Shown piece by piece: positions 325 to 35,100 of a stretch of 42,996 nucleotides of DNA. This stretch comes from Catajapyx aquilonaris. Lineage: Eukaryota. A program made the translations under genes and the position numbers. Under the pieces are notes generated by a model. That model was not told the DNA's origin. It did no database searches and saw only the letters and a program-made list of their open reading frames with translations. The stretch spans positions 1-42,996 of the forward strand of contig JYFJ02003358.1 of NCBI GenBank assembly GCA_000934665.2. Direction: 5' to 3'. How positions within the stretch are numbered: position 1 is the first letter of the stretch; every line of letters begins with the position of its first letter.

Positions 325-1549
325 CTCCGAACACGATGAGTCTCTAAGTGTAAAAGAACTCATCTACAAAAACAGCGGGCGAAAGGCCAAGACGTTCAAA
401 CCTAATGACAAATACTCACATTCAAAATCCAAGGATTCAGCAAACAAGTACGGGGATCTGATCCGCAAGAAGGTAGATCCAATTGATATACCAATCTCCT
501 ACTCATCGACGGCGAAAACCCGAAAATCCAGACCATCTGTTTCAAATGCCCTCCTGAATCTTATGCACAAAGTGAGTGTGAGTGATGGACAAGTCAATGA
601 AGAAAAGTTTGACACAAAACGAACCCCTTGCCAGACAACTTCAGACAACGTCTTACTTTCATCAGCATCCAAGATCATGGATGAAGTAGCCCAATCTGCT
701 GGGGTAGTGAACCTGCCTTACAGCAAAAGTGTGCTGGCATCTGTGGCTGCTGCACACCAAGAAAGTGTCAACCCCAAGAAGTCTATCAACAGGAAAAGGG
801 AATTGTTACAAAGACCAAGATTTGCGAAAAGCGACACGTCAGAGATTCGTCGCAAAGCTATAACCAACACGTTTCTTAAAAATAACTCTCAGGCAACATC
901 ACAAGGCGATTATGCCGCAGATAAACTGTCTCAAAAAAGCAGCTCTTCTGTGACAACAAATGCGAAAGCGAAAGGTGCCAAATCAACAAAAACAACCCGC
1001 TCTAATCCTTCACTGAACCCAATACAAGAGGACTCTGTTCCTGCAAGAGAACTGATCAAGTTTGTAGTAAGTGAAACTAACAAGATACCAACCTGGAACA
1101 ACATCAAAGAATCGCAACTGCAATCGCAAAAGAAACTAAAGAGTATGCAGAAGAAACAAAACAAGCGTATGATGAAGTCAGTAGATGCCGGTGCACAGAC
1201 AATACGATCAGTGGAGATCCGGGAGATCCTTAAACCACCTGCAGTTTTCAACACCTCATCACAACCTGACCTTTCAAACCAGAGTAAATCTTTCCTTCGT
1301 CATTCTGTGACAGGGATATCTGAAATCATTCAAGAGGAGAACGAGGCTGGTGAAGAACCTACTAAGCGCCCAGAACCACAAAGTAAGGATTATGGGATTA
1401 AAAGTGATGAGGACAGGAAGACTCTTCTGGAAGCGAATAACAGCATCCCTGAGATTGGATACTACAGAGAGTCAATCTACGGTTCCTGGTTGCTGCCCTT
1501 GGCGAACATTCTGCTGAAATCAACCAGTGTTCAGCATTACCCCAAGTAG
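325..1549 (+). CDS. Large terminal coding exon of an unidentified Ser/Lys/Gln-rich, probably disordered protein; upstream exons lie outside the window
   Basis: 1.3 kb stop-free frame in AT-rich DNA; acceptor ttcactttcAG at 323-324; stop TAG at 1547-1549; no domain recognised. Confidence 0.7.
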
Positions 1550-1954: not shown

Positions 1955-4217
1955 ATGATCAACATTCATAGATCCCAATATGTATCAGCAGTGTTAGTCA
2001 TGTTCATCTCCACAGGTCATTTTGTGCAAGAAAGGAACATCTGCAAGGATATGGTGAGTATATTAGTGTGTTTAATAGGCTAATGCATCGCAGCGTAATT
2101 TTTCTGAAGGTCATTAATAGCAAATCATTTGCACAGTAAGCATACATAAAGTGACGATATCGTGTATTTTGGTACCATTGCATGAGTCTACAAAATAATA
2201 ACATCAATGATGTAATATACAGTATTTTGAAACCAAGTGCAGATGTCCACCTTCTGTTATGTTGTGGCAACATTTTCTCCCTATGTAGGGCGAGAAGTCT
2301 TGCTGCGATGGATATGAATGGAGTGACGATGGAGAAACCTGCATTCCGATTTCTTTCATTGAACACTCAAACTTACAAGCGACAACACGTAACTATTTCT
2401 TGCATGAGTATTGGTCCATCATACTGTGTGTATAGTTTTGGTGTATGAACCATATTTTTATGAGAATAAATTGCGTCAACTATAGCATAAATCATCAAGA
2501 TCAAATTACCAGAAAGTGAAGAATGTTAATCAATAAATATCACAACTTTTCCTTAAAAAATGAGTCGTCAGCGACGTTCGACGTAGTAAATCCAAGTCAA
2601 GCATAAAATATGCCTAAGAGCATAAAGAGCATAAAGAGATGATCAAGTCAATGAAACGTTGGCTAATACATGTAGGCTACAGTACAATATATCACTGGTG
2701 TGTTGATGACATGTTCCAGCATCGCATCAGGATAAGGAAATTGTTGCCAAATCGATAGAGCACGAAGAAAACGCCATTCCGGAATCCATGGAAGGTCTTA
2801 ATTACGCCTCAGTATCTGGATATGACGCAAGTGCTTCCTCCGAAGTCTACAATATCGTTTCAAATGAAGAATTAGTCAGAGACGACTATTTCGTAGTTCC
2901 TTATCCAGCCAGTATTGGCTACAGTTCTGAGGAAATTCTCAACCAAAAACGTAAGTATAATATCGGAATTTAACTGCGTGGAGGATTTATTATTTCTGAA
3001 TAATCATTGTTATACATGTACTTATTTTCAGCTCCACCTGTCATTGGGATGGAAAGCGAAGATTGCCCAGACGAATTTGTGAAACTTTACCGAATTGGAT
3101 GCTATTATTTTAGCAGCGAAAAAAACTACTTCAACTTTGCTTCGGAGCATTGCAACCGTTTGGGCGGCTACTTAGCTGAGATAGATGGTGCCAATGAAAA
3201 CGAGGCGCTGAAGAAGATCATCTCTGTTGGTAACTCCGCTATTCGTAAAGAGTTACACAGGTAATGTTTGTTTCATTTTAGTCAACAGAAATCACCACTT
3301 GCTGGGTGCAACTGATCGAGATGAAGAAGGGACGTGGATCTGGGAACATTCAAAAAGGCCCATGGTATTCCAAGATTGGTTCCGAGGCGAACCCAACAAT
3401 TACGCCAATCAAGACTGCCTGGTTATCTCCAATTACAATGAATTCAACTACCAATGGGACGATATTGCCTGTTATCACGATTTCTACTATCTATGCGAAA
3501 CAGACGAAAGATTAGAATCTAACAGCACGACCACAAGTCCTAAAGGTGGGTAAGTTTGAGAGAAGTGAGCAACACCATTTGTTTCATAATTATTGGTACT
3601 CCTGATCACGAGTGCACCCGGAAAATAGGGGCTGGTGACACCAGGCAGTAAGCAATAAAATAATTTAATTGCAGATTTGGCGCCACAAACAAACGAGTGG
3701 GATTGCCCTGAGGGATTTAGCAAGGAAGGAATTGAGACATGTTATCAACTTGTCGTAAAACCACTGAACTGGTTTGAGGCCAAAGATGCTTGCAAGGAAC
3801 TGAATGGATACCTGGCCATAGTGGACACTGAAGTCGAAAACACCGCAGTTACCGAAATGATCTGGCAATTAGGTGGCGTACATAATGAAAGCGGTCTCTG
3901 TAAAAGTGACATTTAATTCTTGTATATGACTGGCTACATTTATTATTTTAGGTCATGTGGAGGTGTACATTGGCGCTAACGACGCGGAAGCAGAAGGCCA
4001 GTGGAAATGGGTGGATGGGACGCCAGTTGCTTTTGCAAACTGGGGATCTGGGGAACCCAATAACATGTACAGAGAAGACTGTGCTACCATCAAAGGGCAG
4101 GATTACTACCAATACTCCAGACTTTGGAATGACGCTAATTGTTACGAGAGAAAATATTTCCTGTGTCAGACTGACCAACGCGTGTCGAAGAGCAACCGAA
4201 CTACAATTTTAGTTTAA
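1955..4217 (+). CDS. Lectin gene A: secreted CCxGY-module protein with 2 C-type lectin domains (~451 aa)
   Basis: Exons 1955-2053, 2289-2388, 2720-2950, 3032-3229, 3282-3545, 3675-3872, 3952-4217 with consistent phases. Hydrophobic leader, GEKSCCDGYEWSDDGETC, CTLD motifs LGATD/EPN/WDD and YIGAND/EPN/WND. AATAAA at 4217-4222. Confidence 0.88.
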
Positions 4218-4871: not shown

Positions 4872-7800
4872 ATGATCGCATTCAAAAGGTCCCACCAAGT
4901 GCTAGCTTTGCTACTAATAGGTTTATCGGCCGGTTACGCTTTACAAGGAGACAACGTCTGCAGAGATTCGGTAAGTGGGTGAAAAATTGTTATACACAAT
5001 GTGAGGTAATTAAATGCTAATATTACTGCAAATGTATCAGAAAAGCAGCATCGTTACATGCAATAGATCTGCTTCGTTTGCTAGAATTTTTGGTTCGTAA
5101 AAACTTGATAGTGCCTACTCAAAAGAGCAAGCTCGAATTATTGCTAAGCAGTGTTTCTGGGCTGAGATGCAGCGGTCATATGGAAGGGTCAGAATGTTGA
5201 GAATTTGAAATTTCTGTAAGAGTTTAAAATATCCACAGAAGGCTGTAATTATTTTATTGGTATTGGTATTAGTAGGTGACAAGGTATTTTACGAGTCACA
5301 CCTTGGTCACTAACCAACTGGAAATAGAAACTTGACGATTTGGCTTTTTCCACTCTTTGGGTTTCCAAAGAGTGGAAAAAGCCAAATCGTCAAGTTTCGA
5401 ATGAGATATTACCTCAACAAGTTCATGATGTGCAAAGTTTAGTAAAAACATGATGACTAGTACTGAAAAATGAGGCACCATATATCACTGCTTTGAAAAT
5501 TGAAATAAAATTATTACTGCAGGCTCCTAGCACCTTCTGCAAACATTTGAAGGTTGAAAGAATATTGCAAATTCGGAACGTTCTGGCTTCTGTGTAGCTA
5601 AGGAACACTGGCTTGTAATGTTCTAGTTGGCACTATATTTTATCTATCCAACAAAAATACTAGCAGACCAAGCAACATTGGTGCTCTATGGCTCACTTAT
5701 CTAATTTGGTAGCGTACTTTATACAAATGCATTAGCATAGGTGCAGACATAACGACATGGGTCGCAGGAAATGAATTTAGGAGAACGTAATGCTGTATTT
5801 AATTAATGGGTAATGAATCGAGGCCCACACCGGATCCTCCCCTTCGCCAGTTAATTTGTCGCTTACATCCTCCAATAAGCTGTTCAAAAAAAAATCAGCA
5901 TACAACTAGAGGATGCTGCCTGTGATTACAAAATGATATCTGAATATCCGGAAGCACACTTGTAAAATACAGGAGCAACTCTTCCTGCTGATATGATGGC
6001 TTTTGAACAAATTAATAGGAACAGTCCATAATCTAATATTAAGCGATGACATTTGATATTTACAGGGAGAGGAAACATGCTGCGAAGGATACGAACAGAG
6101 TGAAGATGGACAATCTTGCGTTTCAATTCTCTCAACAGAAGAAAACTCCAGCTCACAAGAGAAAAAACGTATACCTTACTGCTCATTGTTATTTGAGATA
6201 TTATATGCTCTGGCTCTGAATTTTCTTCTCAATTCCTATTTAACAGAGCAAGAATAACATGCTAACACAAACTGTTACACGAGCATGCCAAAATAATTTA
6301 CCCTTTCATATTATACTACAGGTAGCCCAACAGCAAATTTTTCCAAGAAGCGAAACGCGCGTAAGAAGCGTGATTACGACGGCAATTCTTATTCATCCTA
6401 TGAATATCTCGCAAGAACTAATGAATTACCAAGCCGAGAACGTGAATACGTTCCAGAATCCATTGAAGCAAGGCATCATTATCCACATGTGGAGAGTAAC
6501 AGCAACTACATCCCTGAATCCATTGAAAGAGGAGGTTATGCTCCAGTGCCTGAAGAGCCCAGCGGCAATATTCCAGAATCTCTCGAACGAGGAGGTTACA
6601 TTTCAGAATCAGCAGAACGAGGAGGTTACGTTCCAGAATCAGCAGAACGAGGAGGTTACGTTGCAGAGTCTGCCGAAAGAGGTTCCGTTCCAGTGCCAGA
6701 AGATCACAATAGTTATGTTCCAGAATCGGTCGAAATAGACGCACGCTACAATTATGGGTCTGAATCTGATGAGAGTGAATCTTCTGAAGTGTACAATTTT
6801 GCTTCTGGAGAAGACGAATCTCGAGCAGGAAACCTCAGATATGTGCCTGATGTTAGCGCTGATTACTGTAAGTGCGGTATTTTTATACAGGCTTAGTGAA
6901 GTATAGTATGTGCTTAGCCTACACTTTTCAATTTCGTGTTGCAGATCTCCCACCTCTATACCCACCACCCCCACCACCTCGCCCAGTCTTTGTTGGACTG
7001 GAGAAGGGAGAGTGCCCAGATGAGTTTGTAGAACTTCATGGAACTGGATGCTATCACTTCAGCAAGGAAAAGTTGCCGTATTCCATCGCTTCCCAACATT
7101 GCACAGAATTAGGCGGATATTTGGCTGAAGTGGAAAGCCACAGGGAAAATGAAGCTCTGAAGAGGATCATATCAATTGGTGATGTGATATTTCCATTTCA
7201 GCAATTCTGAGTCTGAATACTCTTAACCTGTGTAGCAACTGAGAGACACTGAGAAAGGCATTATATTGTCCAGTAAATTATCAAGACATGCTTGTATTTA
7301 GCAATTAGCAGGCCGAGAAGTTACTTGTCAATAATTGTATGACATATCTTTTGGTGAATTAAGATATTCAAGCTACGAGTCTACCTATATCAATAACACA
7401 GGCGACCCTTATTATTTCCTGGCAATTATGATACCCAAGTTCATTTAATCATTTAATGTTTCAGAAAATGACAATCATCATTTGCTCGGCGCAACTGACT
7501 CGGATGAAGAAGGAAGGTGGATATGGCAACATTCGAGAAGTCCTATGATCTTCGAGGACTGGTTCCGAGGAGAACCTAACAATTACGCCAACCAAGACTG
7601 TCTGGTTATTTCCGATTATGACGAATTTAATTACCAGTGGGATGACATCTCCTGCTCTTATTCTCTACATTACGTATGCGAAACTGACGAGCGAACAACC
7701 ACGTCTACAGGTATGTACGAGATTTAAAAAATAATTTATGTATAGTATAACTTCCAAGCCTGCATAACAAACTTGTTTCAGACTCTCATGTCTAATAAAT

Positions 7801-10703
7801 ATTGTCTAAAATAATAATGCAGACCTTTTTCTTCTTTTTTAAAAAAATACAGAAATTGAAACTTCGAGTAGTGAATGGGATTGTCCAGAAGGATTTACTA
7901 AGGAAGGATGTGAGACCTGTTACCAAATCGTCCAGACACCAATGGATTGGTATGAGGCCACAAGTGCATGTGAACAACTGAATGGATACCTCGGCAAAAT
8001 CGAAAATGAAGTTGAAAATAACGCGGTCACAAAAATGATATCGGACCTAGGTATGCCGTCGACATTTATTTACTATAATATTTGTCACCCATTAGCCATT
8101 AGTATACGCATTATGCAGTAATATTTTTAATTCTTCAGGTAATGTGGAAGTGTACATAGGAGGAAATGACATTGAATCAGAAGGAACATGGAAGTGGGTG
8201 GATGGAAAGCCCGTCTCTTTTACAAATTGGGGACCAGGAGAACCGAATGACCAAGGTGGCGAAGATTGTATCACCATCAAAGGACAAGGCCACGGTCCTT
8301 ATTCGGAACATTGGAATGATGCCAGCTGTTACGATAGAAACTACTTCCTGTGTCAGACTGACCATCGAGTATCAAAAAGTGAATGAACATCTATTTATGA
8401 TTCTATTATACAGTGACCACAAAACATTATTGTAAATAATTTTATTCAAATTTCAGAAATCATTATCGAAGGCGAGGAGTGCCCTGACGAGTATGTAAAC
8501 CTCGAAGGTCAAGGATGTTACCACTTCAGTACTTACGACGAGGCAAACTGGTACGACGCTGAAGATCGGTGCAAGAGCCTGGGTGGATTTTTAGTCAGCA
8601 TTGAAACTGAAGAAGAAAACAACGCCATTCGTTCATACATCGAGTCAGGTATTTATCCTATGATCAGCCTCATGTTTTACTTCCTCAAGTAGCAGTGGCC
8701 TGTTCATAATATAACTTTGCTCCTGCAGGAAAGAAGAACTTTTTCATTGGTGCCAACGACATCGCTTACGAAGGCCGATGGATCGACTCAGTGGGAAAAT
8801 CAGTGCAATTCACTGACTGGGGTGAAGGGGAACCAAACAATGCCAACGAAGGCGAAGACTGTGCTGTGTTGAAGGGCAATGGCTTTAACAAGGGAAGGTG
8901 GAATGACGACAGCTGTTACAACGAGTTTTCGTACATCTGCGAAACCCATCTTCGCCGTAAAGATGGCTGTGAGTCTTTCGTCCAAAATATTCCTTTCCCC
9001 AAATTCATCGTTCTCGTTATCTTTATAGTTATTCCTCATGGAAATGGAAATAACTGCCCGGTCGATTTTGAGCTGGTCGATGGACAGTGCTACTTGTTTG
9101 CCTCAGACGACATTGCCATGACTTGGGATGATGCCAACAATTATTGTGAAACCAAAGACAGTTACTTGGCAGAAATGGATTCACCAGAAGAAGGCGACGC
9201 ATTGAAGGAACACATGAAATACTGTACTTTGATTTAATTACTTAATAATAAGTTGGCTCTAGTGTAATTCTAACACCAACAAATTTCATTTTAGCGTATT
9301 ACAGTGCTCATTTCGTTGGTGGCAAGGGGCAAGGAACTATAGACACATGGACGTGGGCAAAGAGCGGAAAGTCAATCAACTTCTGGACTACATTCCCAGA
9401 AATGTATGGTTTCCCCCGACAAGAACTGTGCATGGTGATGGCTCCTTTGAGGTCGCCCGATTGGGTTTGGTCCACTATGCGATGTGACGAGCAAAATTCA
9501 TTCATCTGTGAAACTGAAGCTTCAGTTGTGGAAATTCCCGAAAAACCCACAAGTAAGATTTTTCTGCAAAAATATTTGCAATGTTTTCCATATCTTCATG
9601 GGAAAATTCTGGTTTTGCAAAGATTTGATTTATCACATAATTTAACGAAATTCTACTGAAGTGTATTATTGGAAATTGAACATTTGACAAGTAATAGTAT
9701 TCCTCCCGAGATTCCTCCAAATCATAATAAGGGGATATATTTTGCACATTCCATGGCATAGTGCCCCCCTCACAGTCTAATAAACTATACAATAAAAAGA
9801 CTTCTTTTTCTGAATAAAACACGATTGAAAATTTACAATATTAGGTTATAGTAGTTTAATCTGCAATGATCAGTTTCACAACTTTCTTTCAGGCAATCAT
9901 GATTGTAACTGGCCTTTCAAAGCTATTGGATATGGATGCTACTATGTCGGAGATACCCAAGAAAACTGGTGGGTTGCAGCTGAGACATGCCATGAAAAAG
10001 AAGGCCATCTGATCACTCTCGACGATTCCACAGAAAACAAAATTATCAGAAACTACCTGCAAGGGGGTAAGTAATACCAAGCTTCATTAGCTCTTACTAG
10101 CAACACTGTTGCAATTTCTACACCAATATTATATGTCCAATACAAAAAATGGAGATATTGATATGTAGTACATTATTGAACTGGGTGCATTTTGAAAGGT
10201 GAATACTCATAAAATAATGCTCGTCAATACGTATACAGTAATTCATGCTGGCATTTGATAATTGAGCAAATGCTCCTCATACAGTATGTGAGCTTCTGGA
10301 GATATTTTGTCTTTAATTATACCCTACAAAAAAATGTCACATAAAATTATGTCACTGGATTCCTCCCTAACATGCATTTTTCTTGTTCCTCCCCCCTCTG
10401 GAACAAATTGCGATTGTCATCATAATGTCACTTTTTTTTTTTGCAGAGAGTATGGATCATGTTTGGATCGGAGCATACGATTTAGGTCACGAGGGTCAGT
10501 GGGTATTAGACAGATCTCGGAAGCCAATGGTCTTCTCCGACTGGGCCAAACATGAACCAAACAACCATGAAGGAAATCAACATTGTGCTGCTTTGAAGGA
10601 AGGCATTGATTACCGATGGGATGATGCAGATTGCCTTGATGAATACTATTTTATGTGTGAGAGCGATCCAATTGCGCCAATGCCAACATTGTACTATCGT
10701 TAA
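4872..10703 (+). CDS. Lectin gene B: secreted CCxGY-module protein with 5 C-type lectin domains (mannose-receptor-like tandem CTLDs, ~993 aa)
   Basis: Exons 4872-4970, 6066-6168, 6322-6867, 6945-7178, 7465-7710, 7853-8050, 8139-8378, 8457-8648, 8729-8968, 9029-9223, 9295-9552, 9893-10066, 10447-10703. Signal peptide MIAFKRSHQVLALLLIGLSAGYA, CCEGY, RKKR. EPN in domains 1, 2, 3 and 5; no transmembrane segment. AATAAA at 10777-10782. Confidence 0.9.
6567..6686 (+). repeat. Coding 30-nt tandem repeat, 4 copies (consensus YVPESAERGG)
   Basis: Units such as TACGTTCCAGAATCAGCAGAACGAGGAGGT start at 6567, 6597, 6627 and 6657; a further dispersed copy starts at 6507. Confidence 0.9.
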
Positions 10704-17000: not shown

Positions 17001-20000
17001 CAGAGTACCTTCCACCAGCCTTGGGCCTGACGTAAGATGGCAGGTACCTTCTCATCAGGTCCAGTTCTGTGACACTCAGCAAATGATTGATAAGAAGTTC
17101 TGATATCAGGTAAAGAGCCTGTCCCCAGAGGAAGATGTGCTCGGAGCTTCCTTCCTTGCTCCCGTATCTCAGTTGGCTTCCAGGGTTTCTCCTCTCTCGA
17201 TCTATATTCTCTTTGGGGACATAGTAATACATGGGGACTATGGGATCACCATTGTGATCCACCTTCAAGCGGTTCGCGAGTGCTGATGTATACTCGTCTA
17301 CTTGATCTGGAGCACCTGCAATGTTGACAACAAAATTAATATGCTGGTAACTCTAAGACTGAAAGACTACTACTGACCTACTGTCACTCATTTGCTTGGT
17401 TTATTTGTGCAGGGGAGGTAGGAATGATTGAAGTTAGGTTTTTAAATCAAAAGTAATTAACAGATGTGATAAGCCATGAAGGAAGTTAAATAGAAATCAC
17501 TGTCAAGGAATACCCCTTAATTCAGTTTGTCATTGGCTGATGTGCCCTATTCATTCCAGAATAAATAGAAAACGACAAGAATAAGTCCCTTACCTTTGAA
17601 AACCCCATCAATAATCATGTATATATAGAACAAAGGCCACTCGCACTCCACATGTTCAAACTCCTTGGTCTCGCCATCATAGTAGTAGCGACGAGCTGAG
17701 TCTTCTAATTCAGTAGCATACCCATCCCGCAAAAAGCGCTTAAATCCATATGTGCCCCTCAGCTTGCGCACAATTTTACTCTTGGTAGCTCCATAAAGAA
17801 CCTCATCATGTGTTGCAAAAGCAGGGAATGAAACAGTTGGGAGTAATGATGCATCAATATTTTTAGAGCTTGACTCCTTTGGCAGCATAGTTTCAAATAT
17901 ACTTCTGTTACGATTATGGGCATCAATGTCAACATATATAACACTCCAGGCAGAGCCACGAGTTCCAAACAAATTGAATCCATTAATTGCTTCTAATGCA
18001 GCTTTTGCCATACCAATGCTTGATGCATGTATTTCAGGGCTGCCATCATTGTATTTGGAACCTCTTCCCCACATTCCATAATCTGGTGTGCGATATGCTC
18101 TCTCTACATAATAAACCAGATTCTGCACAAAAGCAATTTCATCTCTGGTATATATGATTTGTAGATCAGATGATATCATCTGCACTAGGAACAACAGCCA
18201 GAGAGAGACAATGTCTATCTGCAAGTGATGGTGCTCATGGTCTTGCAGTACAGTGTCACCTGTCACCAAGTGGAACTTGCAGTGCAGGGAGTTTTGAGCA
18301 CATTGGTTCTTTTTGAAAGCCTCCACTCGTGAAGCCTGTCGTAACCAGCATTCAAGAATACCCCGCATTGTCTTGACAGCTGACTGGCCCAGGATGTAGG
18401 ACCGCCCACGATCATCATCCATGCGCCTTAAGGAATTTAAAAATCCGAACATCCAATCAAAATGTTATACGTATACAGTGTAATTAAGCTTATTTATACA
18501 AATAACCTTACTCTTAGTGTTTAAAATATTTAGCCCATGGCTCATGTCTATTACGAGGGGGGTCCAGAAAGTAAGGTAAAACATTTTTTATCTTGTAAAG
18601 TTTTAATGACAGATACATACAACTCACACATATTGAAGATGTGGTTAATCTTAATGTCATTATTCAATGTGATCATCGAGTTGGTACAAGCACTTGTTCC
18701 ACCAAGTCTTCTATACCCCCTGTCTAGAATTTCGGGTCAAGCGCAAGTAGCCAGGCGATGCCCTCTAATTTCACCTCCTCAGCAGTGGCAAATCATCTTC
18801 CTGACAGGTGACGTTTCAGGGGGCCAAAAAGTGAGAGGGGTCCAAGATTTAGCACATGTGCGAAGGACCCATTCTTTGGATGCACAATGTCACACTAGAG
18901 ACCATGGTGGTTTTTAATTATCCTTCTTCTCTCCAGCCAAAAATGTCCAGACCAGGTCTTCTGCGAAGAAATTCATGGCAACAGTCTACACTTGGTCCCC
19001 TGAAAGGTCACCTGTTGGGAAGAGAGTTGTCCAGTGACGAGGTAAAATTAGAGGTCATGACCTGGCTACTTGCGCTTGACCTGAAATTGTAGGCGGGGAG
19101 TATAGAATACCTGGTGTAACGGTGGTAAATGTGCTTGTACTGACTTGAGGATTACATTGAAAAATGACATTAGCCATATATTCAATATGTGTAAGTTGTG
19201 TGCATCTAACTGAAACTTTCCAAGATTTTTTTTTAAAAATGTTTTACCTTACTTTCTGGGCACCCATCGTAAAACAATCAAGTCTTTATAATAGCAAAAT
19301 CAATATCTTTGGTAAGTTTTTGTTATGTGACAGAAATGCATGGAAATTCCTTCAGCCGGACCAAATAAAAGTTCTTTAATGGAAAAATTTTGGTAATACC
19401 CAGGTTTCACTTCATTTACAGTAAGAATTACCTGAATGACTGGCAGAGAGCCCAGAGTGAAGCTGCACAATAGATGCTATCCCTCACACTACCAATCTGA
19501 GTCTCTGATGAAACAATTGGGAAAAGACCAGTAGTAGGGCTTTGGTAGTTGAGGATCTGCCTCTTCACTGCAATATAATAAAAAATTACATTTCTATTAC
19601 CAAAAATTTGACAAAGGAAAACAAAAAAAAAAAACTGATCTATATGCTACTTGGTGTTTAAAAAAGTGAACCCATCTCGACCCATCCTCTCAGACTTAGG
19701 TATGATGCGAATGTTTGTGGCAAAATTATTCTAATTGGTTCTAGTTTGAAAATTTTTGGCAAGTGAAAGCAATATGTGGTTGGCTCAGTAATGGAACCAA
19801 AATGACATAACTCAAAAAGCGGCCATTTTGCTTTATAACATGACAGGCCCACCTATGTAAACATAAATGCAGTAGGTCCATGTTGCATTGAAAATTCTCA
19901 CTTTACAATAATAATGCCTAAAATAGCAATGATTTTCCTGTGCTACTACAACTGTTACAATTTATTAATGTGAGGATATTATCGGATATTATGACATTTC

Positions 20001-20762
20001 ATTCTCTCTATAATATAATCAGTCCTGACACCCTGAGGATGTAGTCATGAGTCGATTAACCCAAAGAGAGTCATGATTTTGCGTAAGTATAATATTTGTC
20101 CCCAGATCAGTTTAGCAAGCAGTAATTATCAATTGCCCTGCATTTTGTAATAATTGGTAACTTCAACAAAAAAAGTACTTACTTATGCCATAATACATCT
20201 CAAGTTGCCGCACAGAAGTCTCATAGTCCTGCCTTGGTGATACTATCCCCTCGCTACCTTCTCTTTCTGAAGCTGAAACTCCAGCACTGCTCTGCCGCCC
20301 TCCTCTGCTGCCACTTCTTTTATTCCTGCAAAGCAAAGCCATAAGAACAATCGAAGCATAACTACATGACCAAATGGAACGTTGTTACCAATTGTTGTGA
20401 ACACTAAACTGGTGCAGTGTATAATGTGTAAGGATCTATTCTCATATCTGCATGATGTAACCTGTCCTGGCAGTGACAATACTATTTGCAACCAGAAACC
20501 ATTGCTGAACTAGACAGAAACATGTTGGACAACAATGGTTCCCAGCTGTAGATAATCTTCCAATGCTATAAATTCACACCCCTCTGTAATAGTACCGCAA
20601 GCAAACATGGTGCCAGTTATGACATTCATCCTGAGACTGTAAAGCAGCTTTGGCCATGCCTTGTTTTGCATTAGTAATTGCCTTCAAGTTGCACAACAGG
20701 TCAATGAAAATAAAATGATTTCACTTTGGTTCCTCTAAAACTACTTACACGTGTCGTGTCAT
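11001..20762 (-). CDS. PHKB: Phosphorylase b kinase regulatory subunit beta (~1091 aa)
   Basis: Exons 20762-20749, 20325-20183, 19567-19432, 18426-17594, 17315-16993, 14684-14667, 14506-14276, 14142-13955, 13801-13686, 13619-13474, 13308-13054, 12779-12415, 12140-11792, 11159-11001. Motifs [67 protein letters not shown]-terminal CaaX CTVS*. The first exon and the 18-nt exon are less certain. Confidence 0.95.
11530..11650. mobile_element. Degenerate MITE-like fragment in the last PHKB intron
   Basis: TAA followed by GGGGCCATCCATAAA, a poly-G tract (containing an N) and CGTTACGTAA, a pattern resembling arthropod MITE ends. No clean second TIR. Confidence 0.35.
15497..15994. mobile_element. MITE (possibly PIF/Harbinger-like) in a PHKB intron
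   Basis: Inverted repeats GTTGCACCAGTCGCGGTATATGGAA (15497-15521) and TTCCATATACCGTGACTGGTGCAAC (15964-15988), 24/25 match. The right end continues CGGCCC then TTA; the left tip is eroded; the interior is GC-richer than the flanks. Confidence 0.75.
18554..19269 (+). mobile_element. Internally deleted, decayed mariner (Tc1/mariner) element in a PHKB intron
   Basis: TA flanks at 18552-53 and 19270-71. TIRs CGAGGGGGGTCCAGAAAGTAAGGTAAAACATTTTT and its complement with 3 mismatches. Transposase remnants SAKKFMATV and [19 protein letters not shown]...RW*MC..LEDYIEK* with internal stops. Confidence 0.9.
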
Positions 20763-22015: not shown

Positions 22016-24187
22016 TTAAAACAAGCTTACTTGAGACACCCGCTCATCAGTTTCGCAAACTGAATATCTTAAAGCATGGCAGGCTGCCACTTCCCGTATT
22101 ACACTTCCGTTATCGTTCAGGTATGCGCATGTTAGGTCGTGGACATTACTGCTTCCTACCAAAGCTTCGCTCATACCTAACCAAAAAAAGAAAAAGAATT
22201 TTGTTACATTCTTCTCTATGGTACATAAAAGCAAATCATAAGTAGGCTACCCATATTACCATGTACTCTCAATATATTTGCAAGAGCGTCATTCTCCTCT
22301 ACTGAGTCTAGAATAGCCAAGTAAGCTTTCATCGACGCGCAGTTGGTGTCTGCTTGAGACCAGGTCATTGCATCCTTAACTATTCTATAGCAGCTCCCGC
22401 AGCCAGCCTCGATAAATCCCTCTGGACACTTCCATTCGATTCCAGCATGTTCAATCTCTAAAAAAATTAATACAAATAAATATCGATAAACAAAAACCAA
22501 ACTGGAAGATACCTATACCTGGGATGTGGGTGAAAGTAACTTCCTTCCTCTGGTCGGTTTCGCACACATAATGCAAGTTACGATTGCAGGATACATCATA
22601 CCAGGCAAAATAATTGGTGCCCAGACTGGAAAGTACTAAGCAATCTTGATTAAAGAAATTGTTTGGTTCGTGTCTGAACCAGTTTTCGTAAATTATGGGC
22701 TCTTTGGAATATTCCCATATCCATCTGCCTTCGTCGATTATATCGGTGCCACCAAGGTAATGATGGTCATTATTGACTGGAATTTGATTTGTAACACTGT
22801 TAATACTGTGCATGTAGCTAACACAACTTACAATAATGTAACGAGGCAGAATACCTTCAAAAATCAGTGTTTGAATGGCTTTATCCTCTTCGGAATTGTT
22901 TACTTCTGCTAAATATCCCCCTTTGCTTTCGCAATCCTGGGATGCGGAGGAAAATGAGTCTTTTTCATTGCTTAAAAAGTAGCACCCAATTCCTCGCAAT
23001 TCTATGAATTCATCTGGACAGATCCCACTCTCAAATCCAGCCACTTCTGGTGCTAAAATTCAGAATATTATAGCGAAGTTGTTAGTATAGGTACTTTGGA
23101 GGATCTGTTTCGTAATGAGAAAAAAATAATTGCCTACCTCGTGGATGCGCATTACTAGGAGAGTCAAGAGCATTTTCATAGCTGTAGCTAATGATGTCAG
23201 GATTATTAACTGCCATGTTTCCAGTTCTTGAACCAGATTCACCCGAAGCAAAGTTATAGACTTCACGAGTATCACTGTCGCTGTAAAATTCAGATGACCT
23301 GCTCGGTTCTGCAAAACCTGGCCCTGTGAATATCTCCGGGCTACATTCATGTCTATGAAAAATGTCGCAATATTTATTTTAATATACCTTCGTATTCTAA
23401 CGACTCGGGGATAATGTTCATATTTTCTGAAGATTCTGGAACGTAATTGTTGATTTCCAAAGATTCAGGCACATAATCGTGTTCGTTCGGCTCCGAAAAA
23501 TAGTAATTGTTGTTTTCAGTAGATTCAGGTCTTCCATGTTCTGATCTTTCAATAGATTCTGGTATGTAATCATCATTGTTATTCATGGCTTCTACTGATT
23601 CCGGAATGTATCTATAGGGCATGTCCCTTTCCTCGTGGACATTGCGCTTCTTTCGCACTCTTCTCTCACTTGCCAGTTCTCTTGCTGAAAAGTTTAAAAA
23701 AATACGATTGTTTATTCTATTTTTTAACAGTACCGTTATGACTTACGTGACCCTTGCAATTCCGAGATTGCAATGCAAGCTTTTCCATCAGGGCTCCTCA
23801 CATATCCTTCGCAGCATACTTCTTGGCCCTATTTCAAAACAAGCGATTTTGAGCTTACCACCACAAAATGTCAAAAATACACAGGGTAAGATAATACGTT
23901 GTCATTATGATGAAGATGATGAAATAGGTTTGTTGCATTGACGAAGATAACCTAACAGCGTCACTATGCACAACGTGCTTACGTTATGCTATATTATTAT
24001 CTGATGCAGTAAAAATCAATCGAGCAAACTTCCAATAATTGAACACTTCATAATATTTATTCTAGTGTAGGTCATGTAGGCTACTCACCAACTGTTCACA
24101 AACGCTAGGTTCATTCAGAGGTGTAGCTTTGGCCACAGAAACAACAAGCAGAGGGATTAGCAGCAGATATTTCTCGGAGAAAAACAT
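22016..24187 (-). CDS. Lectin gene C: secreted CCxGY-module protein with one intact and one loop-deleted C-type lectin domain (~487 aa)
   Basis: Exons 24187-24089, 23828-23747, 23684-23388, 23308-23138, 23052-22855, 22776-22519, 22457-22260, 22176-22016. Signal peptide MFFSEKYLLLIPLLVVSVAKA, GQEVCCEGYVRSPDGKAC, RKKR, Y(I/V)PESxE repeats, EPN/WYD. The 3' end is uncertain because a possible donor follows RVSQ. Confidence 0.87.
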
Positions 24188-24759: not shown

Positions 24760-25284
24760 TTAGTCCAAGGCAGGTGTCTCACATATGAAGAAGTTTTCGT
24801 CTTCGCACTCGACATCGTCCCAGTGGAACCGTATGTGCCACTTGTTGCTAAAAGCAGCACAATGTTGCCTCCCAGAATGATTATTGGGCTCACCAGGCTG
24901 CCAGTCTTCGAATTGAATGGGCTTCCTGTGGTAATCCCAGTACCAGCGCCCTTCATGACCCATATCGTACGCACCCATCCAATAGACAACTTCCTCTCCA
25001 CCTGTAAAGGATCCAGAGGCAATGGAGGAGTTTTCTGACATTGTGGCCACCTCATCAACAAACAGGATTTACATTGGCAATATTCTTACCGTGACGTTTC
25101 AGAAGATATTGCCTGATATCTTCGTTTCCTCTTGGAGATTCCACACTGACCAAATGTCCATCCGACAAATGGCGACATTTTTCTGTGGCCGTCCACCAGT
25201 TAGCCACTGAGTCACTTATGTAATAACAGTTTGAGCCCAGTTGCGTGTAAGATGGGTAGCATCTGTCGCTTCCTATGGTTAATA

Positions 25285-25363
<79 letters not shown>

Positions 25364-27840
25364 GCATATAAGTTGTAAACTTCTCTTTGGGGCCATTGAA
25401 GTCTTATACCTGTTTCTGATGGCTCTGGTACAGCTTCACTCACGATTGGATCCGTCTCGCATATGCATGACATACTTTGGGAGCATAAGACAGCATCCCA
25501 GTACCATCCGTCTTCATACGTGAGGGCCATGCACCTGCCCATGTCGGACGTCGTGTCTCTGAACTTTCCTAATGGTGTCATTGGTTTGCCACTGTTGCTC
25601 CAAGTCCAACGTAAATCTTCTGTGTCCACTTCGCTTACTCCCCCAGTGTAGTAAGAAACACGGGTATAATCTATGGTAAAATATTTAAAATTTTTAAAGC
25701 AAGTTATATTATTTTATAATATAGAAGCTAATGTAGCTTATAAAGATTCTCAATAAGATTTTACTCTAATTTAGTTTTTTTAAACGTATAGTAGCCCAAA
25801 TGAAACAATATTAGGCAAAATAATAATTATATTCATAAACCTTATACACATGCAGGATCGTTCCTATAGTGAAACATCAACGTGGAGGAGAGTAATGAGA
25901 AGAACTAACCGCTTTCAAGGTATGACTTGATTGCTTCAAATTCATTATAGGAATCAATTTCCACAAGGTATCCGCTTGAAAATCTGCACCGCGCACTGGC
26001 ACTGTTCCAATCTTCGTAGCCAGAATATTTCTCAATCATGTAGCAACTATCTCCTAGTAGCTTGTATCCTTCAGGACAATGCAAAACACTTCCAGCTAAA
26101 TAGATTTTAAAAAATGAACATTAGTTTTCGTACATTTATGCACCACATGCAGAGCTCTGTTTATTATGATATGAAAGTAACATTACGTCTGTGGCGTGCT
26201 GGTTGACGGACGTTTGTTTCGCAGATATAGCCAAATTTGTTGCGGCATTCATCATCGTTCCATCTCCCTCTGTTGTATCCTTCGCCTTTGAGCACGACAC
26301 AGTCTTCATTACCAGCGTCGTTTGGTTCGTCGTACCCCCATTTTGCGTAACGAACATCCTGTCCCTTTTCTACCCATCTCCAGTGGGATTCATCTTGGAT
26401 ATCGTTTGCTCCAATGTAATAGTCGCGGCCAGGATTTGCTAAATATTATTGACATTCACATTTTCCGCACTTGAAACAATAATAATCAGTAACGAAAAAA
26501 CGTTATATTTTGCCTACTCTTTTCGATGTAGGCTGCTACTGCTGTCACCTCTGCTTCAGAATCCATTGTTGATAAGTATCCTCCCATCTTCTGGCATTGC
26601 TTTTTGGCAGAAAACCAGTCAATCTCTTTTTCGCTATTGCTCACAAAGTGACAGCCAGTACTTTCAATGTTAAAGAATGGTGGTGGACATTCCTCATTTT
26701 CCCGGGGTGGTTCTACACAAAAATTGTAATGATTATACCCTCAGTTAAATGTGTGTGAAAACCCATATTCACCTGAATGCAATCTCATATCAGTTTCGCA
26801 CACGTAGTTCAAATTGTCATCGCAGTAAAAATCATCCCATCTAAAATCAAAGTCACTATAACCGGAAATAGCGAGGCAGTGTTGATTCCAGTTGTAATTA
26901 TTGGGTTCACCGTAGCCCCAGTTCGAAAATTCCATATTATTTCCCGAGTGATCCCAAATCCATGTTCCTTCAGTAACGCGATCAGTGGCTCCAAGATAAT
27001 GGTGGTTCGCATTCTCTATAATATCAGAAAGTTTGTTATAATTATATGGCAAGAGTAAAATTTCGAGTTCATACCTGTAGAAATAATCCTTTTAACGGCC
27101 TCATTTTCTTCTTCATTGTCAATTTCAGCCAAGTAACCTCCTATTTCACGACAGCTGAGTTTTGCTGCATCCCAGGTCTCTCTGTCCTCACTAAAATGGT
27201 AGCATCCTATACCATCTAAATACCGATAATTGCTGGGGCAATCTCCATTGTTACCGACTGAAAGTGCAAAGTGCTGTTGACTGCCAGGTATTATAAAAGC
27301 GAACTTATTATTGGCTACTTACTTTCCTGTGAGCCGCTCTCAATGCTCTCTGAAGAGGAGTACAGGTTATATGGGTACGGGTACGAATAATCTGGATAAG
27401 ATCTTCGTTTTTTCCGAACTAGCATGTTATTATCATCCGATTCCGATATTAATTCATCCAAAAAACCTTCTTCTGACTCACCTGTGGACAAGATTTAGGA
27501 GGTGATTGTGATTATAAAGATAAGGCGGGCATATAGTGCGTATACCGAAATATCAAAATGTGTATTTACTTTCTAAAGCGATGCAGATATTAGGGGCTAC
27601 ACATGTTGCGTTAATGCAATCTGGATGGCACACTGGTACACAAGATCCGAGCTCCTTGGTGTAACCATCACAACAATCTCCATTTTCCTGAAGCAACAAG
27701 TGAGTTAATTGTGTGTATCCATTACAATAATATATTCAGCTTACCTCTTCCACACATCCACGACTTGGTGAGGTGAAGGCAGATGGCACTGCTATGAAAC
27801 AAATAAGCGCAATAATTTTGAACCTTTCTGAATAATTCAT
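24760..27840 (-). CDS. Lectin gene D: secreted CCxGY+NIM-repeat protein with 4 C-type lectin domains (~705 aa)
   Basis: Exons 27840-27745, 27687-27570, 27481-27323, 27257-27075, 27015-26773, 26712-26518, 26438-26187, 26095-25910, 25670-25410, 25272-25090, 25001-24760. Signal peptide, CCDGYTKELGSCVPVCHPDCINATCVAPNIC, RKKRR. EPN in domains 1, 2 and 4. AATAAA on the minus strand at 24621-24626. Confidence 0.9.
25286..25362. repeat. (TAT)n microsatellite in an intron of lectin D
   Basis: About 25 perfect units; source of the spurious poly-Y and poly-N ORF tracts. Confidence 0.97.
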
Positions 27841-29179: not shown

Positions 29180-32100
29180 TCAGCACTGGGTGCCATCCTT
29201 CCCCGTGAAAGACATAGGTACCTGCAGGGACCCTGTAGAAGGCGACCTTACTAAAGTCATCATTTCCACATCACACAAAGCATCCCCAGCACTATATCTC
29301 TGCCTCTGCGGTTGCGCAGACGCCGATGCAGCCCACAAGCTTTCCTCTGGAGAAGATGGCCGACTGTTCCTGAAAATGCCATCTTCTTCTACCTCCTCCT
29401 GGTGGTTAGCCACGTTTTGCAGGACTTCCGCTGGGATACTCAGCAGTTGCAAAACTCGCTCTTGGTGACTCATTGCCCATTCTTCGTAGTTGTCCACCGG
29501 GTATGATGTCTGAGTACCCCGATGGCAACAGTGGGGTTGTCCAGGGCAGGGAGAGGTGCTTGGAGTACGGCCCAGGCTTGGTGCCAAGTTGCTGGTGCTG
29601 TTGGACAAGCCCTGCAACAGCTGGAGAGCTTGTCTAACCTATAAGAAACAAAGTTATCTCATTGCACTCCAGTGAACTCAGAAAGCCACCATAATGAGCT
29701 AATTAGTTAACTTGCCTCAATGCTGAGGTTTGCTACATCATTGTGGAGGGTAGAGACGTGAGTATCCAGTCGCTCGACGCTATTCTTGGCTTGGTCAACT
29801 CCCTGAAGTTCCAGATTCAGTCCTTCCAAGGACCCAGACCTGTGGTTTGGATGGCCTCTGTCTCGGCCTCCACGACCGCGATCTCTCCCAAATCTTACTC
29901 CAGTCAGGTCACAACTGCGGAACTCGTCAAATCTGGAAATATATAAGAGCATTGTTAATTATGCAAACAAGGACTTGATTTGACCAGCCAAACTACGTAC
30001 TAATGCTAAAACATTTAAAGAGCATAAGCAAGTTATATTTAAAATGCTCTCCAAAAGGAAGGTCAATCTTGACCTGGAAGCAAACTTGTGTCGGAAGGGT
30101 GACCTTGACGCCGGCGAAACTGGAGACTGTTCGCCGTCTTCAGCCAGGTTCTCGTCGTCTTCGCTGATTGATGGTAGTGTCAACGAGGGTCCTCCGTTGG
30201 CGTCTGACTCCTGCTCGGCCTCGTAACCTTCTCGCAAATTGTAGGTCAGGTCATGCTGGATGTCATTGGCGAACTCTTGCTGGAACTCACTGTACAACCG
30301 AAGCACTTCGATCAGTCCAGGTATGTGAATGCACTTGATGTCACAGTAGGTTAGGGCTTTCACATCACAGCTGGACTTCACGAGCACTTCTGTTCCGCCC
30401 TGAGCAAGTTGAATTGTTATGTCACAGCCTACCAGGTCACCCTTTCCTGCAATACATTCGGTTACGTGAAACCATGATAAGACTGCAACATGTACGCTAC
30501 AGTGAGATCCTGAGAAAAAAACAGTGTCCAGAATCCAGAAAAAGGGCAACTTACCCAAAATGGCCACAACCATGCCATTTTGCATGACCTCCATAGAGCC
30601 ATTGCACAAGTAGTAGATATATTGCAGCGCATCCCCTTTATGCACCAAGAACTCTCCGGGAGCGCAGAAATTGGAACGGATGTGAAGGGACAACAGCTTG
30701 AGGCATCCTTGAGGAGCTGGCTCAAAGATTGGCAGTTGAAGTATCTCTCGATGGAGGTGCATCGACACATCTCCTCTCAACTCTTCCGGGAACTCCTTCA
30801 GAGTCTGCAAGTCAAGATGTGATTGTGTTAGGTTTGAACTCGCAATTTCGTATAGTCGCTACAGAATTCTGCAAATGGGCACGTACCTCGTGTATGTCAA
30901 TTCCGTGATTTAGAGACCACATAGTCTGGAAATAGTCCTGCATGCGTTGCTTGAGCTCTTTTGGAACTTGGTGCAAGGACAAAAAGTCCTTCAAATCTCT
31001 CCATTTGCTCTGATACAGAGATCTTCTCGAGTACATCCTTTGAATTATGGCAGTTACATTTCCAAAAACTGCAGCGTGCATCAGAGCTATAGGAGTGAAA
31101 TGGGTGAAATATTAAGGAAGTAACAATAGTTATTTCAAAAACTTTTCAGTTCCTGAAGGTCTTAACCTACTTTTTATAGCTATTACGAAAGTCACTGTCA
31201 CTTGCAAGCTGAATAAAAGTGTTATTTTTCCACCCACGTTTCTGCTATGGAAGTAGAAGGAAACAGTAGGGTGCTTCCAATCTCACCTAATGAGTTGAGG
31301 AAGAAAAGAAACATAGGGAGGTCGGAGAAGCCGAAAGGGAAAATTTAGATTGGGAGCCACTTGCAAGGATCCTTAATTACAAAAGCTTCGCAGTCGACTC
31401 AACAGACTTGGGAGACTTGCAAAAGGCCGTGCAAAATGAGAGTTGGGAACATTTCTCGCAGGAATAAGGTTCGAGCTCCCTTTTCCTCACTGCCAATAAT
31501 TAAATTATTACTCTGCGAAAATTGCATCAGGTGGGGATTAGCTCTTTAGCCTCAAGTCGTCTCTTCGGCGAAACAGTCCAAATTATTACGACTCAGTATC
31601 GATTATGGAACCGATGCTCCCGTCTTCAGGGGGACTACCAGAAAGAGCTAATTACGAAGCTACTTTTCATCAAAATCGCTTCTATTGAGATCAAAATAGC
31701 CTGTCGCAACAGAGTTTAGAAAAAGCAATAATTAATGTTCACCATTAACAGCCTAAAGGCATTAGCACCTTACAGAAAAATAACCTTTTACATTTTCCTC
31801 GAGAAGTTTATTTCTATGGCAAATGTCAAAGTATTGGCAGTTATGATGAAATATAACTAGCCTAGTTCCACAGCAGTTATGATTGGAGTCCTTGAAGGTG
31901 ATCGGAAAAAGAGATGATTTGTAGTTTGAAGTAGGACTACTACAGTATAGGTTGTTTGCTCTCTGGTAGCGGTCACCTGATACAGGTCAATTTTATTCTT
32001 TACGTTTCCTATTTTCCGTGAAGTCGGGAACGAATCGTGGTCTATTGACAAGCGAAATCAATATCATAGCATCTCGAGGAGAAATACAGGGAACAAAATT

Positions 32101-35100
32101 GCCTGAGGAAAGATGTCCACTTTTGTCCCTAAAAGCTGGCTAGGACTGGAAGTCAAAAGAAGCGAAGTTCATGCCAGGAATATAATTGGACATCAGTATA
32201 AGGAACAGTATACTCTATGGTGCACTGTACAAATCCCAAGTTCAATGGAAAAGCTATGGATTGGTTGGTCCGGCAACCATGAAAAGAGAAATGGCAGGTT
32301 GGAAGCAACCATCATGGGTATAGTAGCATGTTGGGAACCTTTGCGAAACATTCCTGAATTGATAGAAATACCAGTTATACTCCTTACCCCCAATGAGCAT
32401 GGCGCAAATGCTGAATATTTTTTCAGGTATGGTGTTGGCAGAGACGTTACCAAATCCAACGCTGGTAAGGCTTGTACAGGTGAAGTAGAGTGCAGTCAAG
32501 TATGACTCCGACCTACTTACATTCGTGGGTGGAATTTGTAACTTCTCGGCTAGTAACACAAGCCATCCTGTAAATAAATTTCATAATTAGCAAAATTATC
32601 ACCACCAATGGACATACAGTACACAAGAACATCTTTGAAAGCGTTGCAGTGAATTTAAAAAGTATCAGTATTAATAAACTTATCATCAAGATGACAGAGC
32701 CCAAGTTTGTTAACTGATTTTTCAAAGGACATACTGTCAGATACATTTTATATTGAAGTTAATTTATTGGCACATTGTTTTTGTTGTGCCACGATATTCC
32801 AAAAGTTACCAAGGGCCATTTTGTTATGTTCCTCAACATATTTATGTGGGAGTTGTTCCTAATAATATAAGGATTTAAAAAATGAAACTCCGTGATTCAA
32901 TGATTGAGTTGTTACACTGACAGGCTTGAAAATAGCAATAAAGAAGAAAAGAAAAATTCTGCGTATTCCAGGCATAAATATCCAGCAGCAGCCCTTTGAT
33001 ATTTGAAATCATTGGAAAATGCTATTTTCAGAGCTGGAATTTCATAACTCATGGCTATTGTTAGGAAACACTGAGTTTCACTTTTCTTCTGATATTATTA
33101 GCAAAACCTACATTAAAAGTGGTTGAGGAACATGATGGAAACGATCCTGGCATCCTTCCATAATTCTTAGGTTTGTCGCTAAGTTACCTGTAATAAGTGC
33201 ATTCGGATTACAATATTTGAACGGTTAAGTAGTGGGTCTTTACTGTTTGCTACCAGCAGTAGGCCTATAAGTTTTGGCGTATCGCTTAATACAAGCTAGA
33301 ATATGGATGCCCTTATTAGTGAAAATAGGCCGAATGATTAATCAGGTGCGAGCATTGTCTAAAAATTACTCATACCTAGCATTTAACCCTGCAATTCCCA
33401 CTAATCTAAGTAATTCCCACTGGGCCATATCTGGCACACCATTCAGTGCAATTTTTGCAACTTTTGCAATTTTTATATTTCTTGTAAGTGCCAAATTGCA
33501 CCAAATGGTGTGCCAGATATGACCCAAGGGGCATTACAGGGTTACAGAATAAATTATTAAAACGCTATAATTACGCGAGTTTATGTAGCTCAGATCTGAT
33601 ATCCACTCTTTTTCAACCAATTCGGATACGAGCTGAACCCTAAATCAGAAATCCCTAAACCTATGGTTTATACATTATTTTCTACAATATTGACAATAAA
33701 CCTGCCTTGAGCTTTAAGAAATCTTGAATGATCATAAACATCTTGAACGGCTTGCATCACCAACAAAAACATCCAAATAAATTCAGTGACGAATCATAAT
33801 TATTTGGCCTCACAATAATTTGCATTTTATAATCCAGTGATTTACAATGATGTACAACTCGCCATTAATAATTTTCTTAGCATTATCAATGATATATCTC
33901 GTCATAAATCTCTTGCATCATCAAGGAATGTAGTGGCGTCGAGTCAAATGACTTGCATATCTCACTCACTATAAATATCCCATAATCACACATGCAAATA
34001 TGTAAAAACAAAAAATTTCCCACACCAACACTATCAACCTGCCGCTGAAAGTAAACAGAGCATTACTTGTCCTAACGCAACTAAGCATTTTAAAAATATG
34101 TGATACAGCAGCACACGCGTATGACGAAAAAGGGAAAAGAGATCGGATGATTTCCAGCGTACCCAGAGACGTTCCAGCAGCTGCCCTTTCACTCTTAATC
34201 TCTTTCTCTGCAATGACGTACCAGATGCAAGCCATCCAGTGTGCTGTCAGGGAGAAGAAGAGCATAAGGAGAGTCAGGATCATGGCGCTGTACTGTGAGT
34301 ATCGGTCCATCTTCTGAAGAAGCCGCGCCAGGCGAAGCAACCGAGTCAGTTTCAACAAGTGTATTTCTGCCATAGACTGAAATAGATCAAGAAATAGTAC
34401 CACATTACATACATTTAACCCGTGCCCATCATTTCAAAGTCAAACTGTGCGTAGGCCTATGACAAAAAATATGAGAGGTCATATGACTGTCCTTTTTTTA
34501 TTGACACCAACTACCAGGAAGAACTACAGAATTTGTTCCAAATCAAGTGTTCATAGTGCTACTTAACGATTTTTTTTCGCATAGTAAGGGATGGTTAGCT
34601 CGTGATAAATAAATAAAAGGGTATAATTTTCATAATGCGTTCCTCCTGGTGTATCCATATTGACCTACTACATTCAATTAATCATAAATATGCATACCTT
34701 TTTTGATATGTGATAGACTCAAAGTAATGAATATAATCTGCAAGTTTTAGATATCCTCCCTGGGACAGCTCATAATTACTTAATGAAAATGGAATATGTT
34801 TGATGCAACTTTGGAAGCTAGACTTGTGAAGCGTAAACCACGAAAATGAAGGAAGAAGGATGAGAAAATATCTCTGCGATCTTCAATTTTCATTTTTTTA
34901 CTCCCCCCCCCTACATCTCATTAAGGCTTGACGAAGAAAATGATTAAGAAAATGCCATAGCAAACTTACCCCGCTATAGACATCGGAGGCGTATAGAAGA
35001 TCAAAGGGCAGTGCGGCCAAAAGGTCCAGTATGAACCAACCTTTGAGGTAATTGAGAGCGATGGTCTTAGAATGAGACACCACCTCTCCTTTCTTACTGA

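Follow-up and report, generated by a model that had tools for sequence, protein, structure and literature searches.

A C-type lectin gene of Catajapyx aquilonaris with a putative Draper-derived head that lacks one disulfide loop

How does a gene that otherwise reads as a C-type lectin come to begin with part of a Nimrod (NIM) repeat, and what has become of that part in its relatives? The question is posed by four paralogs, A to D, in a 42,996-nucleotide stretch of the Catajapyx aquilonaris genome (contig JYFJ02003358.1, assembly GCA_000934665.2), referred to here, at its full length, as the window. An initial annotation proposed that gene D keeps a CCxGY motif and a truncated NIM repeat with an even cysteine count, that D stands closest to a Nimrod ancestor, and that A, B, and C lost the body of the repeat. 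The window also holds a multi-exon gene between the lectin pairs (~11700-20400, minus strand), one exon of which matches Glyco_hydro_15 and which we take to be a phosphorylase kinase regulatory subunit; a set of exons (~29180-37800, minus strand) with a cNMP-binding match and a pore-like SVGFGNV stretch, presumably an EAG/ELK-type potassium channel; and a Lys/Ser-rich open frame of 456 codons (179-1549, plus strand) with no Pfam match at E<=0.01.

Gene D lies on the minus strand and is modeled with 11 exons, all with AG/GT ends, encoding 705 amino acids in a stop-free frame; like all gene models and splice sites given here, it is a prediction from genomic sequence. Exon 1 (27745..27840) encodes a hydrophobic leader, a putative signal peptide, and the first cysteine of the head, and ends in phase 0. 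Exon 2 (27570..27687) carries the rest of the head, and exon 3 (27323..27481) an acidic linker with the sequence RKKRR. RxKR is a furin site, and we take RKKRR, and RxKR elsewhere in the head-lectin genes, to be a furin-type site. Four C-type lectin-like domains (CTLDs) follow: CTLD1 (26773..27257; exons 27257-27075 and 27015-26773), both exons of which, the only two lectin exons of D that were scanned, score above the Pfam Lectin_C cut-off; CTLD2 (26187..26712; exons 26712-26518 and 26438-26187), with EPN and WND; CTLD3 (25410..26095; exons 26095-25910 and 25670-25410), which is degenerate and lacks EPN/QPD; and CTLD4 (24760..25272; exons 25272-25090 and 25001-24760), which ends in the stop codon. 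EPN is thus present in the first, second, and fourth domains. The architecture is of the secreted type, with no hydrophobic membrane segment.

The 118 bases of exon 2 (27687-27570, minus strand) translate exactly into the peptide first reported, between a CAG acceptor and a GTAAAT donor, entering in phase 0 and leaving in phase 1. Aligned with the published NIM consensus CxPxCxxxCxNGxCxxPxxCxCxxGY (PMC4073527, in the part of the text available), the peptide matches through the fifth cysteine, as had been claimed, with NA for NG and an N-A-T sequon at that position; CCDGY sits directly before the partial repeat, and the final CxxGY is missing. Exon 2 stops after the fifth cysteine and is therefore short of a complete six-cysteine repeat, whereas all 67 first modules examined from outside the family have a further cysteine within 6 residues. 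Nor is there a NIM array; the model has a single incomplete repeat, followed by four CTLDs. Chance does not account for the pattern: across all six frames of the window, CCxGY joined to the NIM core is seen once, and in none of 200 shuffles, and the shorter CCxGY..C pattern occurs three times (in A, B, and C), compared to five times over all 200 shuffles together. Read on through its donor, exon 2 meets a stop after 5 codons, and the 88-nt intron 2 would be too short to hide an exon. Past a stop but still in frame with exon 2, this intron (27569-27482, minus strand) reads ICPPY, resembling the missing C5-x-P-(G)-Y, with no sixth cysteine after it. A similar motif appears in frame in ~1% of shuffles, the pattern having been picked after the fact, and ICPPY may be what is left of the lost loop, or a coincidence.

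Two other domain identities were considered and rejected. For the cEGF subtype (PF12662), named at the outset as the observation that would count against a Nimrod affinity, Pfam returned no row for D at E<=10, and a sub-threshold row appeared only for the short head of C (E 0.026); the Pfam rows for the D exon were EGF_PEAR1L and C_tripleX, both below cut-off, and all three homologue candidates retrieved with the exon are insect proteins with 6-21 NIM repeats. The module is thus NIM-type rather than cEGF. An EMI domain (PF07546) spans ~80 residues with seven spaced cysteines and ends in CCxG(Y/F)..C, according to the excerpt of PMC3342094, whereas D has only four cysteines in 20 residues and lacks the exon that matches EMI in Draper.

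Exon 2 contains seven cysteines and exon 1 contributes Cys29 (in GCVEE), giving the eight cysteines of the mature head (29, 37, 38, 48, 52, 56, 61, and 67); Cys14 lies inside the hydrophobic leader. The heads of A, B, and C have four each, at 30/38/39/51, and the models thus confirm the reported counts of eight versus four. The even number is not in itself remarkable. What the NIM consensus describes is an EGF in a shifted register: it starts at the last cysteine of the previous unit and stops before the last cysteine of its own EGF, so that loss of the final CxxGY..C removes one whole disulfide (5-6). Placed in disulfide register, the D head reads as a four-cysteine knot (C-x7-CCxGY-C, fibrillin FUN-like) followed by C1-C4 of an EGF, only the C5-C6 loop being gone, and an even count is then what one would expect. 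The general FUN-type arrangement, C-x(n)-CC-x-G-aromatic..C, is present in D, and the C-x7-CC spacing is found in A-D. In fibrillin, the FUN knot pairs its four cysteines 1-3 and 2-4, and EGF1 pairs 1-3, 2-4, and 5-6 (PMC3794157, in the portion available). By homology, D would pair Cys29-Cys38 and Cys37-Cys48 in the knot, and Cys52-Cys61 and Cys56-Cys67 in the half-EGF; the heads of A-C would be the knot alone, a two-disulfide mini-domain.

Structural comparisons are compatible with such a module. A profile built from ten head exons and searched against the PDB found its best whole-head match in fibrillin-1 FUN-EGF1 (2m74, positions 4-50, i-E 1e-5); the N-terminus of SCARF1 also matched (positions 2-50), and WIF-1 scored highest in total, by virtue of five plain EGFs. 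An AlphaFold model of D exon 2 reached pLDDT 82; it lacks Cys29 of exon 1, so the disulfides are inferred and not read off the model. Compared with 48,161 chains, its top fold match was again 2m74 (residues 60-105, 40/40 aligned, rmsd 2.6), although with a Z of only 3.1. Foldseek returned no match for this model at E<=0.001, and the D exon alone gave 0 sequence matches in the PDB. Residues at the FUN-EGF1 interface of fibrillin include G70, W71, V82, P83, I84, and P97 in the excerpt of PMC3794157. D has G, an aromatic (Y), VPV, and P at these packing positions, and the half-EGF therefore probably still packs on the knot. A single-sequence model of the corresponding exon of paralog E was poor (pLDDT 58). 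Atlas searches are leads only: the best score for D, 0.80, was uninformative, and E reached 0.86 with a cluster of EMI and EGF_PEAR1L proteins. Since fibrillin FUN-EGF1 and the SCARF1 N-terminus contain the same knot and EGF1, this combination is not peculiar to Nimrods.

We propose, with a probability of about 70%, that the first three exons of a Draper-type gene were joined to lectin exons and that the resulting head was worn down in whole disulfide units. Once the EMI middle exon was gone, a four-cysteine knot like fibrillin FUN would have remained; D would have kept the N-terminal half of the EGF/NIM repeat, packed on the knot, without the 5-6 loop; and the ancestor of A-C would then have lost the rest of the repeat once. 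The members of the family bear on each of these steps.

Paralog A (1955..4217, plus strand; 451 aa, two CTLDs) has head exons at 1955-2053 and 2289-2388 with the knot only, keeps the CxP, and has no RxKR. Paralog B (4872..10703, plus strand; 993 aa, five CTLDs; head exons 4872-4970 and 6066-6168) and paralog C (22016..24187, minus strand; 492 aa, two CTLDs; head exons 24187-24089 and 23828-23747) also have only the knot, each with RKKR and PES repeats. Intron 1 of B contains an inverted repeat, ~30 bases per arm by eye (window 5341-5400). The second CTLD of C (22176-22016, minus strand) is cut down to 99 aa and lacks EPN/WND: the domain is decaying in a gene whose frame is otherwise open.

The head family is wider than the window, as searches of the same genome place further members on other contigs. 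Paralog E (contig C1059; 485 aa, two CTLDs) retains all six EGF cysteines and the GY, with no RxKR site in its model. A near-identical copy with an identical head exon translation lies on a 2.1-kb contig (C12130) and probably represents a recent duplication or a haplotype left uncollapsed in the assembly. Paralog F (contig C3602; 1234 aa) has all six EGF cysteines, an RHKR site, a linker of ~890 residues, and two CTLDs. Upstream of F on the same contig stand three tandem two-exon genes, G1-G3 (L039:8384-8011, 7748-7336, and 7067-6617, minus strand; 102-104 aa each), which encode only a leader, the knot, and a full EGF with all six cysteines and are candidates for tiny secreted Draper-head peptides. 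Gene H (contig C3306, L080:793-598 and downstream, minus strand) combines a leader with an EGF lacking the knot, a short E-like cysteine segment, and several CTLDs; the gene just upstream of it is presumably of the anoctamin type. In the 24 stretches examined (20 upstream of other CTLD genes, from 148 CTLD matches, and 4 others), no further CCxG head was found, and the only EGFs were that of gene H and two unrelated ones. The knot's four cysteines and its glycine are invariant in all ten aligned heads. B, C, D, and F have the furin-type site after the head, and the A and E models lack it.

Two further features of the genome surfaced in these searches. The 148 CTLD-exon matches form a large expansion over many contigs, and many of the best carry NWW..YDLGHEG, often in tandem arrays (e.g., contigs C3172, C3201, C470, and C1138); this YDLGHEG-like type, which recurs at many loci, also includes the terminal CTLDs of B, D, E, and F. 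The DNA pattern for CC[DE]G[YF] gave 563 matches, swamped by a dispersed repeat with one fixed 15-mer that makes up a large share of the 100 matches listed.

Did A-C pass through a D-like state? A tree of 15 of the 17 CTLDs, leaving out C2 and E1 as long branches, unites the first CTLDs of A, B, and C without that of D (97/95; 94/96 with all 17 domains), and trees that place D1 beside A1+B1, or beside C1, fail the AU test (p=0.026 in both cases). As this clade excludes D1, the EGF body appears to have been lost once, in the ancestor of A-C, in agreement with the earlier proposal that these genes shed the NIM body and kept a two-disulfide mini-domain. An EVYN linker motif is common to A-C alone. 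The spacing before CC, seven residues in A-D, compared to 32 in E, 18 in F, and 14 in G, favors D as the sister of A-C. Terminal CTLDs are less informative: the free tree joins D4 with F2 (87/84) and not with B5, the alternative of B plus D survives the test (p=0.11), and a tree built from the last two CTLDs of four genes did not resolve. The claim that D is closest to the ancestor did not hold. E and F keep the complete six-cysteine EGF, and E also keeps the middle-exon phases of Draper, so that by these sequence features E, not D, is closest, with D less eroded than A-C and more eroded than E and F.

A reading in which D is both nearest to the Nimrod ancestor and the direct intermediate from which A-C derived is therefore doubtful. 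D does fall outside the A-C clade and has in common with A-C the cluster, the C-x7-CC spacing, and the type of the first CTLD; the tail of its exon, CIALE, resembles CIAISE of C, as would be expected had a deletion in a D-like exon given rise to A-C. CIPIS of A, however, is an equally good match to CVPV, the start of the repeat, an ancestor with a full EGF and two independent losses fits the trees equally well, and 'nearest' is already refuted by the more ancestral modules of E and F. In our preferred reading, a Draper-type head eroding by whole disulfide units, the family would form a graded series that runs through full EGF, half EGF, knot only, EGF only, and head-only genes.

What the head does is a more tentative matter. 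EPN-type CTLDs bind mannose/GlcNAc-type sugars with calcium, and the lectin part of D could act as a multivalent pattern-recognition unit that binds such glycans on microbes or dead cells. Furin would probably free the ~70-residue head from the lectin, or else the head would stay on its acidic tether. A place for this furin-processed head and glycan-binding lectin in opsonisation or clearance is conceivable, and we hold it less probable than its opposite. The head would serve as a small protein- or surface-binding tag, on the model of NimB4, a protein with bridging-molecule features that attaches to apoptotic corpses (PMC8419693, in the portion available), or of fibrillin FUN-EGF1, which binds protein and heparin (PMC3794157, likewise). 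The head-only genes G1-G3 suggest that the head can work alone.

It is unlikely, though the family lends it some support, that the half-EGF persists as a neutral leftover: a pro-piece, unfolded or dispensable, which furin removes and which is tolerated since its even cysteine count avoids mispairing. That the family tolerates heads with a full EGF, a half-EGF, the knot alone, or (in gene H) the EGF alone would support a dispensable half-EGF, and the furin-type site after the head in four of the genes is compatible with removal. Against this, the cysteines and glycine of the knot do not vary among the ten heads, the head-only genes are intact open frames, and the A and E models have no site at which such a pro-piece would be removed. 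More speculative again, and rather improbable as a whole, is that the family comprises undescribed secreted Draper-head/C-type-lectin proteins working as furin-processed two-part opsonins, in which the lectin marks glycans and a FUN-like micro-domain, either set free or kept on its tether, engages Draper-type receptors or the surfaces of dead cells, with a reduction series linking the EMI/NIM head to the FUN knot. If this were true, the genome would hold a natural series with a free-standing FUN-type domain of ~22 residues and a stable two-disulfide half-EGF.

The probable source of the head is read from its exon structure. A Draper-type gene in the same genome (contig C2978) has a first exon with leader and GPNVC (phase 2), a middle exon that matches EMI in Pfam (E=1.3e-6; phase 0), and a third exon with CCPGY and a complete EGF (phase 1). 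The head exons of E have the same phases, 2, 0, and 1, the middle exon being shrunk to 43 bases, although the phase-2 first donor of E (GTATTA) is a weak predicted site. Its start, LQGDHVC, compares with LEGPNVC in Draper and LQGDNVC in B. The models of A-D, F, and G have no middle exon but keep a phase-0 exon opening with CCxGY. In a fibrillin-type gene (contig C2092), the first cysteine and the CC lie in one exon, and an intron separates the FUN knot from EGF1. These exon phases, common to E and the Draper-type gene and different in the fibrillin-type gene, point to Draper, and descent of the head from a Draper-type gene is the reading they favor, a module of 30 residues being too short to place in a tree. 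The Nimrod link proposed at the outset thus appears to hold at the level of the superfamily, and specifically for Draper. Non-insect arthropods examined have Draper-like proteins and no B- or C-type Nimrods, with a sensitivity caveat, in the excerpt of PMC4833078, which fits a Draper source.

Comparison with the first modules of insect NIM proteins counts against a Draper source. In pairwise scores of the D module against 74 modules, insect poly-NIM first modules rank 1-26, E ranks 40, Draper 47, and fibrillin 59; the set is 64/74 poly-NIM, however, and these have a median of 88.5, not far from the scores of E (86) and Draper (84).

A head taken from a FUN-EGF1 pair of the fibrillin/LTBP/VWCE type, as a matrix-binding module and not from a Nimrod, is quite improbable. 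The C-x7-CC spacing of A-D equals that of fibrillin FUN, 2m74 is the best whole-head PDB match by both profile and fold, and the fibrillin-type EGF1 of this genome reads CVKPNIC where D reads CVAPNIC; the intron positions, however, agree with Draper and not with fibrillin, and the linker between knot and EGF (C-xPx-C) is 3 residues long in D, in Draper, and in each of the 64 poly-NIM first modules, compared to 4 in fibrillin. Very remote is a separate capture of the D exon from an Eater/NimC-like poly-NIM gene, independent of the E and F heads: the cysteine spacing of D (9,3,3,4,5) is modal for insect poly-NIM first modules, and the stretch from EGF C2 to C3 is 5 residues long in E, F, and G, but the Draper of this genome, like D, has 4 there, D has exon phases and head spacing in common with A-C, two queries found no poly-NIM gene in this genome (weak negatives, as the controls were not picked up either), and B- and C-type Nimrods were not found in the non-insect arthropods mentioned above, under the same caveat.

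A head of this kind joined to CTLDs was also sought elsewhere. A single CTLD exon found no homologue in other species at E<=1e-5. The head profile gave 3398 matches, crowded by many-repeat proteins, with a CTLD in 0 of the 151 proteins examined, and the CTLD profile gave 426, with no head among the 120 listed; all three are weak negatives. Literature searches, covering titles and the starts of abstracts, found no description of a Nimrod/EMI/NIM head joined to CTLDs, also a weak negative, and nothing relevant on a two-disulfide truncated EGF.

Among known systems, the closest to the family heads is the Draper/NimA/CED-1/MEGF10 type, in which an N-terminal xxNVC..CCxGY..C is likewise followed at once by a NIM-type EGF, with phases (2,0,1) as in E and a 0-to-1 exon of CCxGY plus EGF as in D, E, and F. 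The family differs in that the EMI middle exon is shrunken in E and absent from the A-D, F, and G models, and in that there is at most one repeat, no EGF array, and no hydrophobic membrane segment, with CTLDs instead. Secreted Nimrod B proteins (Drosophila NimB1-5 and AgNimB2) have a signal peptide, as predicted for D, and then CCxGY before a NIM repeat (PMC4073527, in the part available), and the binding of apoptotic corpses by NimB4 is a possible model for how the head may work (PMC8419693, likewise). Nimrods have 2-16 NIM repeats (excerpt of PMC7718733), seven in AgNimB2, whereas D has less than one repeat and four CTLDs.

Fibrillin-1 FUN-EGF1 (2m74), LTBP-1L/2, VWCE, and SCARF1 (8hn0/8hna) carry the same C-x7-CC-x-G-aromatic..C knot on an EGF, but their EGF is complete and that of D is not, and the intron positions differ in the fibrillin-type gene of this genome. 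The FUN homologues named in the excerpt of PMC3794157 all have an EGF after the knot, whereas A-C have the knot alone; the N-terminal region of SCARF1 is described as flexible in the excerpt of PMC11563577, which gives no disulfide detail. Multi-CTLD lectins, such as macrophage mannose receptor-like and invertebrate tandem-CRD proteins, have tandem CTLDs with EPN/WND as D does, and the CTLD-profile matches are mostly mannose-receptor-like among the best 120 of the 426; a CCxG head or head-profile match occurs in 0 of these 120, and D is without a membrane anchor.

On this comparison, D is best classed among the C-type lectins, as one with a putative Draper-derived head. Its parts are all known (a Draper/Nimrod head, an EGF, a furin site, and CTLDs), and exon shuffling into lectins is a known process, so that the lineage-specific Draper-head/lectin family would be a new combination of known parts. 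D exon 2 is one step in the series and modest alone; the useful point is the graded series within one genome, in which the 'CCxGY motif' of Nimrods appears as the end of a four-cysteine FUN-like knot that can stand alone, and an EGF appears able to lose exactly its 5-6 loop. The head-only genes and the knots of A-C are easy to make and could be used to find out directly what the CCxGY region of Nimrods and Draper binds.
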